The position numbers were made by a program, and so were the translations under genes. Positions 5,560 through 10,374 of a DNA stretch of 10,374 bases are shown in pieces. Below the pieces are notes generated by a model. That model ran no database searches, was not told the origin of the DNA, and saw only the letters and a program-made list of their open reading frames with translations. The first letter of the stretch is position 1. Each line of letters starts with the position of its first letter. Location: the UHGV virus genome UHGV-0314755. One strand, given 5' to 3'. The stretch comes from a virus.

Positions 5560-6000
5560 CTATTCACAATTAGTGATGGCGTATGTATCAAATATATTGC
5601 CATCACTAAATACATACCTATACTCAATCTCTCCGCCAAGGTGAATAAATGCTTTCATTTGCCTGTTGGAGCAAATGCTCGATTTTGAATAATTTCGCAT
5701 TACACTCTTTAATTTATTTTCTAAGGTTACATCACCATTATAAACTTTTGATAAATAGCTGTTGTTGTAATTAAGATGCGCTACAACTAAGAGTTTGTTT
5801 AGTATTGCATTTATTGAAACAATAGACATATTATCATTCAATTTTATGGGAAGTGACTTTCCTGCTTCTGATGCAATTTTGTTTGCATGTGCACACATAT
5901 CCTCATTTATTAAATTCTTAAAACATATGTCGTTTGCAAACGAAAAAATTGGTAGGATAAACAAAACGGTAGCTGTAATAGCGTGCATCGGCTTAATCAT
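5560..6000 (-). CDS. Small secreted (periplasmic) protein of unknown function, 146 aa; AT-rich cargo gene
   Basis: Only long ORF in a strongly AT-rich segment. N-terminus MIKPMHAITATVLFILPIFSFA/ND has the shape of a Sec signal peptide (positive n-region, hydrophobic core, A-x-A-like cleavage site). The mature part has 4 Cys and is N/K/I/S-rich. An AAGG motif lies 7 nt upstream of the ATG at 6000 (minus strand). The stop (5560-5562) abuts the stop of the 1129-aa gene on the other strand. No recognised family. Confidence 0.5.
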   Translation of the reverse strand: MIKPMHAITATVLFILPIFSFANDICFKNLINEDMCAHANKIASEAGKSLPIKLNDNMSIVSINAILNKLLVVAHLNYNNSYLSKVYNGDVTLENKLKSVMRNYSKSSICSNRQMKAFIHLGGEIEYRYVFSDGNIFDTYAITNCE

Positions 6001-6012
6001 TAGGTGACCTTT

Positions 6013-6462
6013 ATGTTCAAGAAGATGATCAACAGATTAATCGGTGGTAAGGAGGTTAGCAATAAAATTCAACCTCTTATCTTTAAGGATAACTTTTCAG
6101 CTTTTGAGTATGCGTGTAAGTATCTTGACACAAGCCTTTCAGCCAATAAACCAATGCCAGCCATCATCATACCTGGTCCCAGTGGGGAACAGCCAGTTTT
6201 GCTGGATTCTGGAAGACAAAGGGCAATGCTGAAGGTGTGCTCAGCTGATGGTGGATTTTTTGTTATTGCCGATTCATCTTACAGCAAAGGACCAAAGCTG
6301 AGGATTGGTGATCTTGTTGCTTGGTTGCCTGTGAGTTATGCCGAAGAATTAACGGATAAAATAGAAGATCCTCGCTCCGCTATGGTTGGCTTTATATTGG
6401 GAACCATTCATCCTGAACTAACATCTACTGGCTGGAAGGGTAAAGAAAGATTTCGCAAGTAG
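6013..6462 (+). CDS. Hypothetical cytoplasmic protein, 149 aa (cargo gene)
   Basis: ORF open from GTG 6004; the preferred start is ATG 6013, with SD AGGTGA (6002-6007) and a 5-nt spacer. Ends TAG at 6460-6462 and is followed immediately by an intrinsic terminator. No TM segment or signal peptide. No recognisable family by eye. Confidence 0.6.
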   Translation: MFKKMINRLIGGKEVSNKIQPLIFKDNFSAFEYACKYLDTSLSANKPMPAIIIPGPSGEQPVLLDSGRQRAMLKVCSADGGFFVIADSSYSKGPKLRIGDLVAWLPVSYAEELTDKIEDPRSAMVGFILGTIHPELTSTGWKGKERFRK

Positions 6463-6475
6463 CGTGACATGTCAC

Positions 6476-6500
6476 AGGCCGCTTTCGCGGCCTTGTTTTT
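6476..6500 (+). terminator. Rho-independent terminator for the plus-strand transcript (after the 149-aa gene)
   Basis: 7-bp GC-rich stem AGGCCGC/GCGGCCT with loop TTTC (6476-6493), followed by TGTTTTT (6494-6500). It is preceded by a perfect 12-bp palindrome, GTGACATGTCAC (6464-6475). Confidence 0.7.
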
Positions 6501-6537
6501 AACGAATGCCACCGCCGCCCGGGTGGGAATCCGCAGA

Positions 6538-6563
6538 CACAAAAAAGCCCGCGCCGCGGGCTT
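6538..6563 (-). terminator. Rho-independent terminator for the minus-strand transcript (after the 210-aa gene); with the previous feature it forms a convergent terminator pair
   Basis: Palindrome AAGCCCGCG-C-CGCGGGCTT (6545-6563) followed on the minus strand by a T-run (plus-strand AAAAAA at 6541-6546). It lies 4 nt downstream of the TAA stop of the 210-aa gene (6567-6569, minus). Confidence 0.7.
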
Positions 6564-6566
6564 CTA

Positions 6567-7199
6567 TTAATGCAGTTTATCTTTGCTTATAACCAGTAGT
6601 CTGTGGGTATGCACATCTTTATCACTGCCCCAACAGAAATCAGCCCACTGGCTATAGAAATCATCCCATGATGTCATGAAGCTAAGAGGTCTATCTTCTT
6701 CAGAGCCATCTGAAACGTATACATTATATCCCGGGGTGTTTATAGCCCAAGAAATCATTCTTTCCCAGAATCTTCTCCCATCGATTGTTTGTTGCTCATC
6801 AGATACAACGATCGCATATTGCTCTAGGAAGAACTGAAAAAAAATCTGAGGCAAACCATGAACAGCACGGTCATGAATAACATTAGGCGTACGCCATACC
6901 ATGATCTGCGTACATGTTCTTTTGGCTTCGACGATATCTTCCCGAAAGATTAACTTAACCGCATACACCGTTTCTGGAGTATCGCTGGTAGTAATCATTC
7001 TGTAATGATCGCCATTACAAGATTTTACAAGGCGATAACCATAAGGTGTTGTGAATCCCGGAAGAACGAAATCAACCACACCTTTCGCTAAGTAGCTTTC
7101 GGTGTGACTAGTGTTCTTCTCAGACATGTTCAGTTTTCTATCGAAATCTGCTTCTGGGATAATGTATGGCATCGCTTTTCTTGTTGTATTTGTTTTCAT
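6567..7199 (-). CDS. Hypothetical protein, 210 aa (orphan cargo gene, Trp/aromatic-rich C-terminus)
   Basis: Strong SD GGGAGGA 5 nt upstream of ATG 7199 (minus strand). Clean ORF ending at a good terminator. No TM segment or signal peptide. Operator copy 1 (TTACC-N5-GGTAA) lies 60 bp upstream, overlapping a TAATAT -10-like hexamer. No family recognised; an R-x5-H motif (RTPNVIH) is noted but is too short to interpret. Confidence 0.7.
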   Translation of the reverse strand: MKTNTTRKAMPYIIPEADFDRKLNMSEKNTSHTESYLAKGVVDFVLPGFTTPYGYRLVKSCNGDHYRMITTSDTPETVYAVKLIFREDIVEAKRTCTQIMVWRTPNVIHDRAVHGLPQIFFQFFLEQYAIVVSDEQQTIDGRRFWERMISWAINTPGYNVYVSDGSEEDRPLSFMTSWDDFYSQWADFCWGSDKDVHTHRLLVISKDKLH

Positions 7200-7258
7200 T
7201 TCGTCCTCCCATGTTTGGCTACAGGACGCGTTTTGAAGGGAAGATTAAAAACGCTTTC

Positions 7259-7273
7259 TTACCCGTAAGGTAA
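7259..7273. promoter_or_regulatory. Operator copy 1: palindrome TTACC-cgtaa-GGTAA upstream of the 210-aa gene
   Basis: Exact TTACC(N5)GGTAA. It overlaps a candidate minus-strand -10 (TAATAT, 7278-7273), with a weak -35-like TTGGCG 18 bp further upstream (7302-7297). It is one of three copies in the window, all in non-coding regions upstream of or between minus-strand genes. Confidence 0.5.
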
Positions 7274-7315
7274 TATTACGCGAATCTACATCACATCGCC
7301 AATGATTATTTTAAA

Positions 7316-7331
7316 GGCACATCCCTGTGCC
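7316..7331 (-). terminator. Possible weak terminator or stem-loop just downstream of the antirepressor gene
   Basis: 6-bp stem GGCACA/TGTGCC with loop TCCC, starting 8 nt after the ant stop (7339-7341). The following minus-strand sequence is TTTAAAATAAT, a poor U-tract, hence low confidence. Confidence 0.3.
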
Positions 7332-7338
7332 GCCGCCG

Positions 7339-8049
7339 TCAGAAGAACCCTGCCTTGTCGTTGATGTACTCCGCGTGCGTCTGGATATCACGCAGGCATT
7401 TGCTCACACCGACGATGTAGCAGAACATGGTGGTCAGCTCCGCCGCCGCGCCCGATACGTCGTGCCCGTCTTCCTGTAACTGGTTCAGCAGATTCATCAG
7501 CAGTGAGTTTTCCGTCAGGCCGAGAACACCAGACGGAGAATGAATCAGGCTGCGGTAGCCGGGCTTCAGTGGGGCGCTGTAGGTTTTGTTCTCTATCTTC
7601 ATTGCCTGCATCACTGCTGATGCTGTGGCGTTGGCTACCTGGTCGGCAACCATCTTTATGCGTTCTTCCTGCGGGAGCGAGTTTTTAATGTAACTTCCTG
7701 TGCGGCGGATCTGAGGAAGAACCTCACCTGTAACCCATTTACGAAAGCGGTAGGGGATAGTGCCTGGTGTTACTGCATCGCGGCAGCGGAGGATCAGTGT
7801 GTAGAGGCCTGACTCGGAGATGATGTTGATCTCTTTTACTCGGCTGTCAAAAATTGCACGATGTTCATGCCCTATGTTGAACATAGACCTTTCATCATCA
7901 TCCAGTTTTTCAAGTGATTGGGTGACGTTTTGGATACGCAGCGCACTACAAACGTCTTGGGCTACAAACCATGGTTGGCCATCGATAATGATGGAACGGA
8001 TAGGGTTAACAGATTCAAATTTGAAGATGGCAGTTTGAGCATTAGCCAT
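7339..8049 (-). CDS. ant: Phage antirepressor, 236 aa: Bro-N-type N-terminal domain plus Ant-type C-terminal domain
   Basis: N-terminus MANAQTAIFKFESVNPIRSIIIDGQPWFVAQDVCSALRI matches the Bro-N / P22-antirepressor N-terminal signature (F.F....IR....DG.PWFVA.DVC..L). Preferred start is ATG 8049, with SD GGAGA and an 8-nt spacer; the ORF track's extension to 8064 uses a GTG with no SD. The C-terminal ~65 aa are about 45% identical to the 85-aa protein encoded at 8365-8622. Confidence 0.85.
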   Translation of the reverse strand: MANAQTAIFKFESVNPIRSIIIDGQPWFVAQDVCSALRIQNVTQSLEKLDDDERSMFNIGHEHRAIFDSRVKEINIISESGLYTLILRCRDAVTPGTIPYRFRKWVTGEVLPQIRRTGSYIKNSLPQEERIKMVADQVANATASAVMQAMKIENKTYSAPLKPGYRSLIHSPSGVLGLTENSLLMNLLNQLQEDGHDVSGAAAELTTMFCYIVGVSKCLRDIQTHAEYINDKAGFF

Positions 8050-8060
8050 GGTGGTTATCT

Positions 8061-8145
8061 CCACTTAGTGATTTTAATCACCACCGCAACGCCAATTACT
8101 GGTGGTGAACTGGACAAGGTTGGCGTACCGGCCTAAGTGGTACCG
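8061..8145 (-). promoter_or_regulatory. Candidate promoter/operator region of the antirepressor gene
   Basis: Minus-strand -10-like TAAAAT (8076-8071), about 20 nt upstream of the ant start region. An 8-bp inverted repeat, TCACCACC (8078-8085) / GGTGGTGA (8101-8108), sits over the -35 region. The 8-mer CCACTTAG occurs at 8061-8068 and 8234-8241, and inverted (CTAAGTGG) at 8133-8140. GTACCGGC is directly repeated at 8125-8132 and 8140-8147. Promoter assignment is tentative. Confidence 0.35.
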
Positions 8146-8205
8146 GCGTCCTTTCGGACCCCTGCCCAGCCCACCATAATTCGGATATAGCTGTGCTTAA
8201 CGCAT

Positions 8206-8228
8206 AAAAAAACCACGTCTGGCGTGGT
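8206..8228 (-). terminator. Rho-independent terminator on the minus strand, between the small Ant-like gene and the antirepressor gene
   Basis: Minus strand reads ACCACG-CCAGA-CGTGGT followed by TTTTTTT (plus-strand A7 at 8206-8212). It lies downstream of two further hairpins (8247-8262 and 8262-8283). Confidence 0.55.
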
Positions 8229-8302
8229 ATGCGCCACTTAGTAACTCGGGACGCCAATCCCGGCACTGGATTTTGCCAGTGCCCGATTACTATGGCACAA
8301 GA

Positions 8303-8346
8303 GGAGTGCAATGTAAATTTACCGCAAAGGTAAATATAAGCACTCC
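8303..8346. promoter_or_regulatory. Operator copy 2: TTACC-gcaaa-GGTAA (8319-8333) embedded in a longer imperfect palindrome
   Basis: Exact TTACC(N5)GGTAA core, flanked by the inverted 7-mers GGAGTGC (8303-8309) and GCACTCC (8340-8346). It lies 19 bp downstream of the small Ant-like gene's stop and about 270 bp upstream of the ant start. Confidence 0.5.
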
Positions 8347-8364
8347 ATTTGGTAATTGCAAACC

Positions 8365-8622
8365 TTATCTGGTTTGTTTTCGTAATTGTTCGGCACAATA
8401 GTCGAGATGTGTTTGCAGATCCTGCATAGACATCTGTGAGCTGGTGACGTAGTTAATCAGTGCAGTCAGTTCGGCAAGTGGGCCATCGACATTAAATCCA
8501 TCCTTATCGAGATCCCGGAGTAATTTCATCAAGTGCGATCCCTCCACCAGTGACCTGACGCCTCCCGGCGTGTGAATCCTTTCGGTAAATCCGTCTTCCA
8601 GTGGATAGTGATACTGCTGCAT
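8365..8622 (-). CDS. Small antirepressor-like protein, 85 aa: free-standing homolog of the Ant C-terminal domain, probably SOS-controlled
   Basis: Preferred start ATG 8622 (SD GGAG, 8-nt spacer); the ORF track's start at 8637 has no SD and would leave only 7 bp between the start codon and the LexA box. The sequence TERIHTPGGVRSLVEGSHLMKLLRDLDKDGFNVDGPLAELT...DLQTHLDY aligns with the ant product's LIHSPSGVLGLTENSLLMNLLNQLQEDGHDVSGAAAELT...DIQTHAEY. A near-consensus LexA box lies immediately upstream. Confidence 0.75.
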   Translation of the reverse strand: MQQYHYPLEDGFTERIHTPGGVRSLVEGSHLMKLLRDLDKDGFNVDGPLAELTALINYVTSSQMSMQDLQTHLDYCAEQLRKQTR

Positions 8623-8642
8623 CTTAATCTTCTCCATGCAAT

Positions 8643-8662
8643 AACTGTATGTTTATACAGTA
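8643..8662. promoter_or_regulatory. LexA (SOS) box upstream of the small Ant-like gene
   Basis: AACTGTATGTTTATACAGTA matches the E. coli LexA consensus TACTGTATATATATACAGTA at 17 of 20 positions, with CTGT-N8-ACAG intact. It overlaps a TATAAA -10-like hexamer on the minus strand and is the only such box in the window. Confidence 0.8.
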
Positions 8663-8699
8663 GCAAATAATTTGTTTGCTATCCAGCACGTTTTGCAAA

Positions 8700-8714
8700 T
8701 TACCTGAAAGGTAA
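8700..8714. promoter_or_regulatory. Operator copy 3: TTACC-tgaaa-GGTAA in the divergent region between the small Ant-like gene and the tailspike gene
   Basis: Exact TTACC(N5)GGTAA, preceded by the palindrome TTTGCAAA (8692-8699). It lies about 80 bp upstream of the small gene's start and about 105 bp upstream of the tailspike ATG. Confidence 0.5.
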
Positions 8715-8818
8715 TATCTATTCATATTCACAGTCTTTCTATCCATATGTGGTTTTTCAGGTAATAGAATAACCAGATATGCGGCGCAACGGGTGCTGCG
8801 ACTATCTGGAGATTTAAC

Positions 8819-10374
8819 ATGACGGTCTCAACCAAAGTTGACCACAACGAATACACAGGTAACGGCGTTACGACATCGTTTCCGTATACTTTTCGAATTT
8901 TCAGAAAATCAGACCTGGTTGTTCAGGTGTCTGACCTGAACGGGAACGTAACAGAATTGGTTCTGGATACCGGTTATACGGTAATTGGGGTGGGAGCTTA
9001 TAGTGGTGGTACAGTGGTTCTTCCGTCGCCGCTTGCTGCTGGCTGGCGAATCACTATAGAGCGTGTGCTTGATGTGGTGCAGGAGACTGACCTTCGAAAT
9101 CAGGGGAATTTTTTTCCAGAAGTTCATGAGGATGCATTTGACTACCTGACGATGCTGATTCAGCAGTCTTTTTCTGGTCTATCTCTTGCACTCAGAAAGC
9201 CATCACGTTTATCAAATTATTATGATGCTCGTGATAACAGAATCCAAAACTTAGCAAGCCCAATTCTCCCGAACGATGGTGTAAACCGTAATTTTGTAGA
9301 AAACCTTTTTATTGATAAAAGCGCATCTGCTTCTGCATTGCGCTCTTTGCTGGAAAGCGCAGCTGGGGCTGGAATAATTGGTACATTGCAGGGATTAACC
9401 GTTCAGTCAGTTTTAGATAATGTAAAAATCCCACTGACGTCATTCGTGTTTTCTATTCCTGATGATTTTGCTAATGCAGATTCTTTAGCAGAATATCTTG
9501 AAAATAGATGCTATACCGGCACGCAAGTAATAGTACATGTCTCAGCAGGCACTCATAATTGGAATACTCTAAATAAGATTTTTGGGAAAGAGTGGGGTTT
9601 TGGCCGACTTAAATTTGTTGGTGAAGGAATGGATTTGACAATTATTCAGTTTCTTAAACAGGACGGAATTTATGCTGAAGCAGGTGAGTGTTATGGTCAT
9701 GCGCCACAGTTTCCCGTGAGTGGTGGTGATATAATACCAATATTTAGTAATTTAACTATATCAGGAATTGACAGAGATTCAGGAATTGATGATCCATATC
9801 TTGATTCAATGGGGATAAGGGCGTTTGACGGCGGTGTTGTTGTACTTGATGAAAGCGTAAGAATAACTCAGTTTTCCAGGTGTGGAGTTATGGCTGAGAG
9901 GCATGGTATAGCTTTTGTTCCTGGGGTTAAAGTCGATACTACAGGTTCTGATTGTTTCGCTGCCTCTGAAGGTGGTTATATCTATTGTCCAGACTCTACA
10001 GCAAGCAACCCGAAAGGTCATTGCTACATCGCATATTCTGGAGGGCAGCTTTATATGCCTAACTGTATTGCCCAGAATGCAGAGACACACAACTCGTCAA
10101 ATGTAGGGGGATCTGGTCTTGTGTTGACCGGAAGCAGTTACGCTTACGCTATTAATCTTCAAACTAAAAACAATGCTCAACGTGGAATTAGTGTGGCGTT
10201 AGGGTCTTTTCTACGAGCTGACGGGTTTACTGAGAGTGAAAATATTCTACCTGTGACTGTTTCGCAGGGTTCCACGTTGGTTTCTCCAAATTGCACAATA
10301 AACAAACCAGATGCTCTTGCGCTTTTAATTGAGAAAGGAGGAAAGGCATTTTTCCAGGTAGCAACAACTGATAA
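8819..10374 (+). CDS. Tailspike protein, 5'-partial view (518+ aa; runs off the window end), with an epsilon15/Det7-type conserved N-terminal particle-binding domain
   Basis: Not in the supplied ORF track because no stop falls within the window; I translated it by hand from ATG 8819 (SD GGAG 8808-8811) and found it open to the end. N-terminus MTVSTKVDHNEYTGNGVTTSFPYTFRIFRKSDLVVQV...ETDLRNQG...LTMLIQQ matches, from memory, the conserved N-terminal domain shared by tailspikes of epsilon15-like and related enterobacterial phages. The downstream part is lower in GC and not recognisable. Confidence 0.88.
   Translation, partial: MTVSTKVDHNEYTGNGVTTSFPYTFRIFRKSDLVVQVSDLNGNVTELVLDTGYTVIGVGAYSGGTVVLPSPLAAGWRITIERVLDVVQETDLRNQGNFFPEVHEDAFDYLTMLIQQSFSGLSLALRKPSRLSNYYDARDNRIQNLASPILPNDGVNRNFVENLFIDKSASASALRSLLESAAGAGIIGTLQGLTVQSVLDNVKIPLTSFVFSIPDDFANADSLAEYLENRCYTGTQVIVHVSAGTHNWNTLNKIFGKEWGFGRLKFVGEGMDLTIIQFLKQDGIYAEAGECYGHAPQFPVSGGDIIPIFSNLTISGIDRDSGIDDPYLDSMGIRAFDGGVVVLDESVRITQFSRCGVMAERHGIAFVPGVKVDTTGSDCFAASEGGYIYCPDSTASNPKGHCYIAYSGGQLYMPNCIAQNAETHNSSNVGGSGLVLTGSSYAYAINLQTKNNAQRGISVALGSFLRADGFTESENILPVTVSQGSTLVSPNCTINKPDALALLIEKGGKAFFQVATTD

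Follow-up and report, generated by a model that had tools for sequence, protein, structure and literature searches.

Three exact copies of the palindrome TTACC-N5-GGTAA occur in the stretch of DNA analyzed here (10,374 nt, referred to below as the window), which represents the late/accessory end of an E. coli prophage of the epsilon15-like group (Uetakevirus, phiV10-type). Sequence comparison makes it highly probable that each palindrome is a copy of the immunity operator that epsilon15-like temperate phages use, bound by the master repressor Rep. They are probably new instances of a repressor site already annotated in epsilon15, here also gating two accessory modules, and an apparent orphan operator is then explained by known biology. 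The three copies are:

7259..7273, operator copy 1, TTACCCGTAAGGTAA, exact match; adjoins the −10 of the putative 210-aa gene promoter, between the Bro-N gene and the 210-aa gene
8319..8333, operator copy 2, TTACCGCAAAGGTAA, exact match; at −10/+1 of the predicted IsrK/C4/Bro-N promoter, between ant and the Bro-N gene
8700..8714, operator copy 3, TTACCTGAAAGGTAA, exact match; in the divergent ant/tailspike intergenic region

Distribution of the palindrome in the window and in related phages

Exact pattern matching returned these three copies and no fourth, as the earlier note had claimed. The expected number of exact copies is 0.01, and none of 200 dinucleotide shuffles of the window reached three, in agreement with the earlier judgment that chance is very unlikely. 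No one-mismatch copy was found within the window, and the seven further matches at ≤2 mismatches are a number compatible with chance. All three copies are indeed non-coding, while their description as lying upstream of or between minus-strand genes fails at site 3, where ant is on the minus strand and the tailspike gene on the plus strand. The A/T-rich tail seen after each copy is real and belongs to a longer symmetric consensus, A-TTACC-(W)5-GGTAA-T flanked on both sides by A/T-rich DNA, which was derived from 36 exact sites of four genomes. At sites 1 and 2, −10 hexamers adjoin the operator on the minus strand. The view that the site is not of the LexA, Mnt/Arc, C2 or lambda type is upheld: TTACC-N5-GGTAA does not fit CTGT-N8-ACAG, and it is not known to match the consensus of the Mnt, Arc or lambda-type 17-bp operators. 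No ribbon-helix-helix gene is present in the window according to the ORF list and Pfam.

TTACC-N5-GGTAA is also the top 5+5 palindrome in phiV10 (8 exact copies), epsilon15 (11), Tyrion (9) and Klebsiella phage BUCT711 (9). Our reading of the annotation tables places 34 of these 37 exact sites in intergenic DNA, and the other three fall in doubtful ORF starts; the copies are thus nearly all outside coding sequences, whereas copies inside them were what the earlier note had named as speaking against its proposal. At ≤1 mismatch, phiV10 holds 14 sites versus 0.65 expected. The same number was obtained by scanning the complete CE10 prophage and its host flank, as had been suggested: this closest complete relative, 97.6% identical to the window over the region, has 10 exact and 4 one-mismatch sites, and no exact copy was found within ~22 kb of host flank. 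The earlier claim that the palindrome specifically links three genes is therefore not borne out, the motif being genome-wide, with ~10–15 copies per genome near most promoters. Its confinement to ~1.5 kb holds inside the window and is lost in the genomes of relatives, where copies are dispersed; it is only apparent, a window effect, because structural genes fill the remainder of the window, and in none of the relatives do such genes hold a copy.

In phiV10, the CE10 prophage, epsilon15, Tyrion, BUCT711 and SPC32H, multiple intergenic copies flank the rep/cro divergent promoters. Operators are found at nearly every promoter region of CE10 and phiV10, including both sides of the repressor gene, and late-gene promoters of relatives likewise have upstream operators. 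PL and the gp45 promoter share one layout (operator, 19 nt, −35, 17 nt, −10, operator), in which the operator centres are 62 bp apart. SPC32H, a phage that has been studied experimentally, carries TTACC-N5-GGTAA at rep/cro, PL and the ant/tailspike region, and the motif is kept in phages of four host genera. The RefSeq record of epsilon15 lists seven "protein_bind: repressor, lysogeny" features that correspond to ATTACC-N5-GGTAAT, and all three window sites match the half-sites and spacing annotated there exactly, although these features may be purely computational. The phiV10, CE10 and ZX5 records contain no operator annotation, and the ZX5 paper does not discuss operators (PMC9782041); the operator map names the promoters that Rep should control in phages of this type, whose records leave the sites unannotated. 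Such prophages occur in ~10% of complete E. coli genomes (556/5426), K1 and STEC strains included, and the best match to the window within these genomes spans 79% of its length.

Conservation at the same positions in related phages, a check that the earlier note had proposed, is observed: orthologous regulatory sites carry the motif, and the window sites are conserved at fixed positions in >100 loci in which spacers and flanks vary. This conservation argues against a chance occurrence of the palindrome, as do the 0/200 window shuffles that reach three copies and the 0/100 shuffles that reach the motif counts of phiV10 and CE10. In favour of a chance origin are the small number of specified bases (10) and the A/T-richness of intergenic DNA; we nevertheless regard it as practically discounted.

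The protein likely to bind the sites

The binding protein is most likely Rep because the motif is genus-wide, flanks rep/cro and is annotated as a repressor site in epsilon15. The window itself lacks rep and the immunity region. CE10 Rep, CE10_RS15180, is 99% identical to phiV10 gp40, a homologue of SPC32H Rep (PDB 5D50_A), and phiV10 Rep matches 5D50_A with E = 4e-42. The candidate repressor that the earlier note proposed to look for elsewhere in the prophage is hence most likely Rep, the SPC32H Rep homologue. The same note had predicted one dimeric binder encoded outside the window. A single oligomeric DNA-binding protein that is not window-encoded agrees with this prediction, whereas a simple dimer does not, since SPC32H-type Rep is reportedly a tetramer: according to PMC9638917 and PMC9986798, SPC32H Rep occupies palindromic sites in tetrameric form, and Ant breaks the tetramer. 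Overexpression of a phiV10-type Rep lowered holin and endolysin mRNA by >99.9% (PMC9782041). In the words of this ZX5 paper, how repressor and antirepressor work "remains to be unraveled" (PMC9782041).

Rep of the phiV10 type is only ~43% identical to the Reps of Salmonella phages. Although overall identity among the Rep proteins is only 43–78%, all of them have the same putative recognition helix, NLVNRW. The unchanged half-site fits this invariant helix, which is consistent with Rep as the binder and not decisive. Covariation of specificity was considered as a means of assigning the binder and rejected: the phiV10, Tyrion, Klebsiella and epsilon15 types of Rep all share TTACC-N5-GGTAA, so that covariation cannot tie the motif to Rep over a Cro-like protein or another regulator.

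Another conserved regulator could accordingly be the main binder, either the Cro-like phiV10 gp41, encoded divergently from rep, or the "transcriptional regulator" gp55/epsilon15 gp49, the palindrome then being a lytic-phase switch or activator site. The rep/cro intergenic region holds sites where a Cro-type protein would act too, and operators at about −65 before late promoters occupy a possible activator position. At PL, the gp45 promoter and the promoters of sites 1 and 2, however, it is −10/+1 that is covered, a repressing position that argues against a Cro-like or activator reading. The epsilon15 annotation names the sites repressor sites, neither gp41 nor gp55 has a recognisable DNA-binding domain in Pfam, and the lytic genes are shut off by Rep overexpression (PMC9782041), all of which speaks against gp41 or gp55 as main binder. 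We consider this alternative unlikely; a lambda-like sharing of the sites by Cro and Rep is compatible with our main explanation.

Homology among relatives breaks beside the operator at sites 1 and 2, where unrelated upstream flanks meet a constant downstream part in the manner of a recombination linker. The palindrome might from this be a structural or recombination element at module boundaries of mosaic phages, or else a host-factor site. Several features contradict such a role. Phages of four host genera share the motif, and ~22 kb of host flank contain no exact copy. Its positions are fixed relative to promoter hexamers, pairs stand 62 bp apart around promoters, and the spacer centre is A/T in 70 of 72 symmetrised cases among the exact sites of four genomes, as expected of a protein-bent site. 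A terminator is also excluded, the stem being 5 bp long with no T-run. A structural, recombination or host-factor origin is thus very improbable, and the operator reading would still hold if conserved regulatory sites doubled as recombination junctions. Observed or computed directly are the motif and its intergenic spread across whole genomes, the epsilon15 annotation, the homologies at the protein and RNA level, and the overlaps with promoters.

The three sites and the genes beside them

Site 1 precedes an accessory gene:

6567..7199, minus strand, 210-aa accessory gene, phrog_1349, function not assigned, weak GNAT-like fold
7273..7302, minus strand, putative sigma-70 promoter of the 210-aa gene; −35 TTGGCG (7297–7302), 18-nt spacer, −10 TAATAT (7273–7278)

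Operator 1 begins at the final base of this −10. The predicted promoter matches 8/12 consensus positions, which is why it falls below the threshold of the promoter scan. In 16/16 E. coli-type IMG/VR loci, site 1 begins 74 nt before the ATG start codon of the 210-aa gene; two spacers and two unrelated upstream flanks are represented among these loci with the half-sites unchanged, and the site is also found in the CE10 prophage. Homologues of the 210-aa gene with 62–68% identity occur in other phage contexts and have no operator there. Presence of the operator goes with the phage background rather than with the cargo gene.

Site 2 stands before an antisense RNA module and an antirepressor gene:

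8333..8361, minus strand, predicted IsrK/C4/Bro-N promoter; −35 TTGCAA (8356–8361), 17-nt spacer, −10 TATATT (8333–8338), 9/12 consensus positions (promoter scan)
8317–8289, second promoter-like site, TTTACA-17-CATAGT, just downstream of operator 2
8206..8295, minus strand, IsrK-like leader RNA (Rfam isrK RF01394, 67.2 bits versus a gathering score of 50)
8098..8181, minus strand, C4-type antisense RNA of the P1 immI type (Rfam RF01695, 66 bits versus a gathering score of 45, E = 5.5e-12)
7339..8049, minus strand, Bro-N::Ant-domain fusion antirepressor, 236 aa, Pfam Bro-N at residues 22–117

Among 114 IMG/VR instances of the IsrK-like core, 106 have an exact upstream operator and 6 more have one with a single mismatch (112/114 viral contigs at ≤1 mismatch). 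The distance from operator to core is 57 nt in 104 instances and 54 nt in 2 that have a different operator-to-core segment, and at least five unrelated upstream flanks are represented. phiV10, CE10 and Enterobacter phage Tyrion also have site 2, with spacers that differ.

The IsrK/C4 antisense module between site 2 and the Bro-N gene was absent from the earlier note. Its IsrK-like leader (folding z = −4.9) carries the decoy targets a1 (8251–8257) and b1 (8234–8241), for which the c4-a1b1 family RF03163 scores 44.3 bits, just under its gathering score of 46.7, and ends with a rho-independent terminator consisting of a stem at 8212–8228 followed by a T-run. The C4-type RNA is probably equivalent to STnc1160 of Gifsy-1. 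Its loop a' ACGCCAA (8120–8126) is complementary to target a2 TTGGCGT (8089–8095) and its loop b' CCACTTAG (8133–8140) to target b2 CTAAGTGG (8061–8068), which overlaps the Shine-Dalgarno sequence of the Bro-N gene. The C4 loops therefore have two sets of a/b targets, the downstream one on the Bro-N ribosome-binding site. No icd-like ORF lies between the end of C4 (8098) and the Bro-N start (8049).

Translation of the Bro-N gene probably starts at the ATG at 8049, not at the GTG at 8064 chosen by the ORF finder, and the CE10 annotation of the protein also gives 236 aa. Over its C-terminal ~75 residues the protein shares 42% identity with the small Ant (E = 1e-19), and both proteins match phrog_450. 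The Bro-N region is ~95% identical in nucleotide sequence to the region of phage ZX5 that holds its "anti-repressor" gene; overexpression of that Bro-N antirepressor (ORF4) promotes the lytic cycle (PMC9782041).

Site 3 lies between two divergent genes:

8365..8622, minus strand, ant, small SOS-controlled antirepressor, 85 aa, orthologue of SPC32H Ant
8645..8660, LexA box CTGT-N8-ACAG, CTGTATGTTTATACAG; overlaps the ant promoter region, 23 nt upstream of the ATG at 8622
8744..8770, plus strand, motif M2, CATATGTGGTT (8744–8754), 7 nt later −10-like TAATAG/TAGAAT (8762–8770), upstream of the tailspike gene
8819..10374, plus strand, tailspike/tail-fibre gene, ATG at 8819; translation begins MTVSTKVDHNEYTGNG... 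and continues past the window end

The site is orthologous to the epsilon15 "protein_bind repressor, lysogeny" feature at 19895–19911 and keeps a fixed 55-nt offset to the LexA box in 85/85 distinct segments (67 exact, 18 with one mismatch). The LexA-box block itself is kept in five phages whose hosts belong to four genera. Site 3 is ~65 bp upstream of the likely start of ant and at the same distance from that of the tailspike gene, and its target is ambiguous because of this equidistance. No convincing −35 or −10 overlaps site 3 on either strand; a candidate plus-strand promoter has a −10-like TAATAT (8712–8717) and no acceptable −35.

The ant product matches PDB 5D50 chain E, "Anti-repressor protein", over residues 2–84 (phmmer, E = 4.1e-47). 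The 85-aa gene, which has its own LexA box, encodes an SPC32H-type Ant and not a P22-like one. Kim and Ryu reportedly placed SPC32H ant under LexA control in 2013. PMC7380047 summarises this control as well.

The M2 block is invariant in five phages, and phiV10, epsilon15 and Tyrion have the same arrangement ahead of their portal and lysis genes; together with the −10-like sequence it is possibly a late-type promoter. Two other readings of M2 were dropped. An RNA hairpin or RNase III site formed by the inverted pair (8744/8771) is at odds with an inverted copy that is not conserved in epsilon15 and Tyrion, and as a strict palindrome AACC-N6-GGTT is only marginally enriched, the directional CATATNTGGTT being the conserved form. 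In phiV10 and CE10, the tailspike orthologue bears the annotation tail fiber or endosialidase.

A proposed induction circuit and its known counterparts

In the mechanism that we propose, Rep would be of the SPC32H type, with an N-terminal HTH, a middle dimerisation domain and a C-terminal tetramerisation/Ant-binding domain, and would be encoded ~12 kb away, outside the window. In a lysogen, Rep on 10–15 sites would silence almost every transcription unit. It would cover −10/+1 of the 210-aa gene promoter at site 1 and −10/+1 of the promoter for the IsrK/C4-antisense leader and the Bro-N::Ant antirepressor at site 2, and at site 3 it would sit between the LexA-controlled ant promoter and the tailspike gene. 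We infer physical binding at the three window sites and repression of both accessory promoters. DNA damage would take LexA off the box at 8645–8660, and the small Ant then produced would dismantle the Rep tetramer. All Rep-gated promoters would open, that of the second (Bro-N) antirepressor included, with translation of the Bro-N protein further gated by the C4 RNA and the IsrK decoy. The predicted outcome is a feed-forward latch on the lytic decision, in which the ability of the Bro-N::Ant fusion to bind Rep, like the feedback itself, is inferred.

The Rep operator accompanies the 210-aa gene and the IsrK/C4/Bro-N cassette in this phage background and in no other. Accessory modules wired into the immunity of the resident phage offer a concrete case of cargo under a phage master switch. 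Tentatively, and leaning somewhat against it, we raise the possibility that epsilon15-like phages of E. coli and Enterobacter gained a second-stage antirepressor circuit after ant that is not described for epsilon15/SPC32H, made up of a Rep-gated promoter, an IsrK decoy with terminator, C4, and a Bro-N protein with a duplicated Ant domain. Should the Bro-N::Ant fusion dismantle Rep, a repressor-repressed antirepressor would act as a positive-feedback latch whose threshold is set by RNA, a union of the SPC32H design with that of P1 immI. On this reading a Rep-gated, GNAT-like 210-aa gene would be expressed only after induction, and the second genus-wide motif, CATATRTGGTT beside the operators, would mark a further regulator.

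The window resembles epsilon15 and SPC32H in its identical half-sites and spacing, the orthologous ant/tailspike site, the dispersal of the operator at nearly every promoter, an ant orthologue (5D50_E) with a LexA box, and the 5D50_A-type Rep encoded by its close relatives. It differs from both in having a Bro-N gene, an IsrK/C4 module and a 210-aa gene after ant, and neither phage consequently has an equivalent of sites 1 and 2.

In P1/P7 immI, said to have been described by Citron and Schuster in 1990 and by Heinrich et al., the C1-controlled Op51 is reportedly followed by c4 antisense RNA, icd and ant. Common to both systems are a promoter gated by the immunity repressor (predicted in our case), a transcript with C4 between a1/b1 and a2/b2 targets, and b2 on the ribosome-binding site of the antirepressor gene. 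Unlike P1, the window has an operator and repressor unrelated to the asymmetric 17-bp P1 C1 site, no icd-like ORF, a rho-independent terminator between a1/b1 and C4, and an antirepressor that is a Bro-N::Ant-domain fusion.

P1 C1 operators and the gp71 "stoperators" of mycobacteriophage L5 are further examples of one repressor with many genome-scattered sites, accessory and late regions included. Stoperators are asymmetric, orientation-dependent elongation blocks; sites of the window type differ in being symmetric, intergenic and placed on promoters.

The isrK-orf45(STnc1160)-anrP region of Gifsy-1 has, according to PMC4825925, an IsrK with its own terminator, read-through to a downstream RNA that is processed, and an antirepressor-like gene whose transcript is gated at the level of translation. 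The window is similar in its IsrK-like RNA with terminator, downstream RNA and antirepressor gene, and different in phage background and repressor. No mention of a repressor operator at the Gifsy-1 isrK promoter was found in the accessible part of PMC4825925, whereas the isrK-type promoter described here has a Uetakevirus Rep operator in 112/114 viral contigs.

Operator copies in the window and in related phages

Pattern search of the 10,374-base window yielded three exact copies of the operator TTACC-N5-GGTAA, all of them in non-coding DNA:

7259-7273, site 1
8319-8333, site 2
8700-8714, site 3

No further copy was found in the window at one mismatch, and two-mismatch matches look like background. 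These results agree with an earlier note on this DNA, which had described the palindrome as exact three times, non-coding and absent elsewhere in the window. Its view that three copies are unlikely by chance is borne out by an expected count of 0.01 and by 200 dinucleotide-preserving shuffles, none of which gave three; a chance origin is excluded. The A/T-rich tail seen beside each site is accounted for by an extended symmetric consensus, A-TTACC-WWWWW-GGTAA-T, the central base being A or T in 70 of 72 symmetrised cases.

Matches to the region come from epsilon15-like E. coli podophages (Uetakevirus), among them phiV10, TL-2011b, ZX5 and HEMP4, and from prophages carried by about 550 of the 5,426 complete E. 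coli genomes. Two large virion genes are followed by a minus-strand accessory block and then by the start of the tailspike gene. The CE10 prophage is the nearest complete relative over 6400-9000 (97.6% identity). Coverage of the window by any complete E. coli genome reaches 79% at most, so the window is a mosaic variant. The stretch from the virion genes to the 210-aa accessory gene holds two more accessory ORFs, 5560-6000 (-, phrog_8772) and 6004-6462 (+, phrog_9944); neither has a Pfam or PADLOC match or an adjoining Rep operator.

The earlier note had taken the palindrome for an operator of three genes, a reading that gives way to a genome-wide distribution once complete phages and a prophage are scanned. 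phiV10 carries 14 copies at one mismatch or fewer (0.65 expected) and the CE10 prophage 10 exact and 4 one-mismatch copies, with no exact copy in about 22 kb of flanking host DNA. In an unbiased count of all 5+gap+5 palindromes, TTACC-N5-GGTAA ranks first in phiV10, epsilon15, Enterobacter phage Tyrion and Klebsiella phage BUCT711 (8, 11, 9 and 9 exact copies, respectively). According to the annotation tables, 34 of these 37 sites are intergenic and the other three fall in doubtful ORF starts. The sites occupy orthologous positions in this phage group.

Operator positions in the phage group
Before the small terminase gene: two
Before the portal-region gene, the tailspike gene, the lysis cassette and int: one each
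Downstream of rep, at the PL-like promoter: two
Between rep and the divergent cro-like gene: two or three
After the cro terminator: one
Before the next early unit: two

The PL and gp45 promoters share one layout, in which an operator, 19 nt, the -35, 17 nt, the -10 and a second operator succeed one another with operator centres 62 bp apart. Two public annotations overlap operators and are likely errors: the phiV10 small terminase start at 41, which takes in two tandem operators at 87 and 105 (41-121) where the epsilon15-homologous start is an ATG near 122, and Tyrion "gp39" (34059-34271), which overlaps two PL operators.

Probable assignment of the operators to Rep

The regulator that the earlier note regarded as unknown is most likely Rep, the master repressor of the SPC32H type. 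The epsilon15 RefSeq record holds seven "protein_bind, repressor, lysogeny" features whose sequences are ATTACC-N5-GGTAAT, one of which (19895-19911, in the intergenic region of gp19 and the tail-fibre gene) aligns with site 3. SPC32H, the Uetakevirus phage whose lysis-lysogeny switch has been studied, carries the motif at rep/cro and PL as well as in the ant/tailspike region. In secondary descriptions (PMC9638917 and PMC9986798), its Rep is a tetramer on palindromic sites, with an N-terminal domain for DNA binding, a middle one for dimerisation and a C-terminal one for tetramerisation and Ant binding; the tetrameric antirepressor Ant splits it into dimers. phiV10 gp40 is homologous to this repressor (PDB 5D50/5D4Z, E 4e-42), 99% identical to CE10 Rep and identical to ZX5 Rep. 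Overexpression of ZX5 Rep reduces holin and endolysin mRNA levels by over 99.9%, and that of the ZX5 Bro-N antirepressor favours the lytic cycle, in a study that defines no operator (PMC9782041).

The sites might belong to, or be shared with, a Cro-like protein or another conserved phage regulator; Rep is favoured over such a protein by the -10/+1 positions of the sites, by the epsilon15 annotation and by the overexpression data. The N-terminal helix-turn-helix segment NLVNRW is invariant among Rep proteins only 43-78% identical, which fits the unchanged half-site; with both constant, covariation cannot prove the assignment.

Modules adjoining the three sites

The features next to the operators are as follows:

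8645-8660, LexA box CTGTATGTTTATACAG, canonical, directly upstream of the 85-aa ant gene
8622 to 8365 (-), ant, orthologue of SPC32H Ant (5D50_E, E 4e-47)
8282-8206 (-), IsrK-like decoy leader RNA, 67 bits against a gathering score of 50, bearing the a1/b1 targets and a terminator at its end
8181-8098 (-), C4 antisense RNA, 66 bits against a gathering score of 45
8061-8068 (-), b2 target, on the Shine-Dalgarno of the Bro-N gene; a2/b2 lie in the same transcript as IsrK and C4

LexA control of SPC32H-type ant was reportedly described by Kim and Ryu in 2013. For ant, ATG 8622, with the Shine-Dalgarno GGAG ahead of it, is the probable true start rather than ATG 8637. In all 85 distinct viral-contig segments (67 exact, 18 with one mismatch), 55 nt separate site 3 from the beginning of the LexA box, and the spacing of LexA box, operator and downstream block is gap-free in phages of four host genera. 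Site 3 stands about 65 bp upstream of the likely starts of both ant and the tailspike gene, and the single promoter-like element that it overlaps is a -10-like TAATAT (8712-8717) without a -35. Looping by a Rep tetramer to site 2, 381 bp away, is one possibility for its action.

Site 2 directly follows a good promoter (TTGCAA-17-TATATT, 8361-8333) whose transcript has a strongly structured leader (z = -4.9). A complete IsrK-like and C4 module with matching a1/b1 and a2/b2 repeats (8098-8295, -) precedes the Bro-N gene, a P1 immI design within an epsilon15-like podophage and a locus of the type seen in Gifsy-1 (isrK-STnc1160-anrP). In Gifsy-1 the read-through mRNA goes untranslated until short IsrK acts on it in trans (PMC4825925). 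An exact operator stands upstream of the IsrK-like core in 106 of 114 viral-contig instances, with six more at one mismatch; the distance is 57 nt in 104 and 54 nt in 2, where the operator-to-core segment differs. In phiV10 the site 2 operator sits within a perfect 41-bp palindrome (20484-20524, GGAGTGCTTATAT-TTACCTTTGCGGTAA-ATATAAGCACTCC). In the counterpart at 8306-8346 of the window, the spacer is oriented the other way and the left arm differs, which may reflect inversion or exchange between arms, or a bidirectional promoter.

The Bro-N protein probably starts at ATG 8049, as in the CE10 annotation, and not at the ORF-finder GTG 8064; it then has 236 aa, including a Bro-N domain. Its C-terminal ~75 residues (~155-233) share 42% identity with the small Ant (E 1e-19), encoded 300 bp away, and both match phrog_450. 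The Ant domain is thus encoded twice in this phage, each copy with its own control, presumably LexA for the small Ant and Rep plus C4 RNA for the fusion. The Tyrion homologue likewise joins Bro-N and Ant-like domains, and the shorter phiV10 gp23 retains just part of the latter.

Site 1, located 74 nt ahead of the 210-aa gene, adjoins a weaker promoter (TTGGCG-18-TAATAT); the product of the gene shows a weak GNAT-like fold. All 16 of the 16 E. coli-type loci carry the site, although two spacers and two upstream flanks occur among them. It is degraded at homologues of 82-83% identity from other Uetakevirus-like contigs, and absent at homologues of 62-68% identity in unrelated phage contigs. By this comparison, the operator belongs to the phage background and not to the cargo gene.

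Predicted circuit, possible modular junctions and a second motif

Alongside the observed homologies, positions and conservation of the three-site system, we infer a feedback circuit. In the lysogen, Rep tetramers on the operators would shut the early, IsrK/C4/Bro-N and 210-aa promoters. DNA damage would remove LexA, whose control of SPC32H-type ant is published (summarised in PMC7380047), and the small Ant then made would disassemble Rep and open the Rep-gated promoters. The Bro-N::Ant fusion, gated by C4/IsrK RNA, would bind Rep and add further antirepressor activity; synthesis of the 210-aa protein would be confined to the lytic phase. Of the components, operator type, Rep/Ant switch, C4 module and IsrK are known already. 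Modestly new are the sites themselves in E. coli members, where they are not annotated, the predicted gating by two of them of accessory modules that epsilon15 and SPC32H lack, and a Bro-N antirepressor with a second Ant domain under putative Rep and RNA control.

Homology between relatives breaks immediately beside the operators at sites 1 and 2 (loci L034-L113, from IMG/VR, and L007-L022): two unrelated flanks precede the 210-aa gene, and at least five, among the 114 core instances, join the same IsrK module. That the operators serve as recombination linkers only is unlikely, given their promoter-locked positions; the breaks suggest instead that immunity operators are also points at which modules are joined by recombination.

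A second genus-wide motif, CATAT(R)TGGTT, accompanies the operators and is sometimes palindromic as AACCATATATGGTT.

Copies of CATATRTGGTT
Window: 8744-8754 (+), 8771-8781 (-), 8361-8374
phiV10: 3308, 20921, 24736/24739, 33132
epsilon15: 2988, 24751

With 10 specified bases, the expectation is about 0.07 copies per genome, against 2-6 observed. Ahead of the portal, tailspike and lysis genes, a -10-like hexamer (TAATAG, TAATAA, TATAAT) comes 7 nt after the motif, with no -35. Other copies fall within the spacers of the PL and gp45 promoters, and one that overlaps the ant stop codon lies directly next to the -35 of the IsrK/C4 promoter. The motif may be the site of a second regulator or a late-type promoter element.
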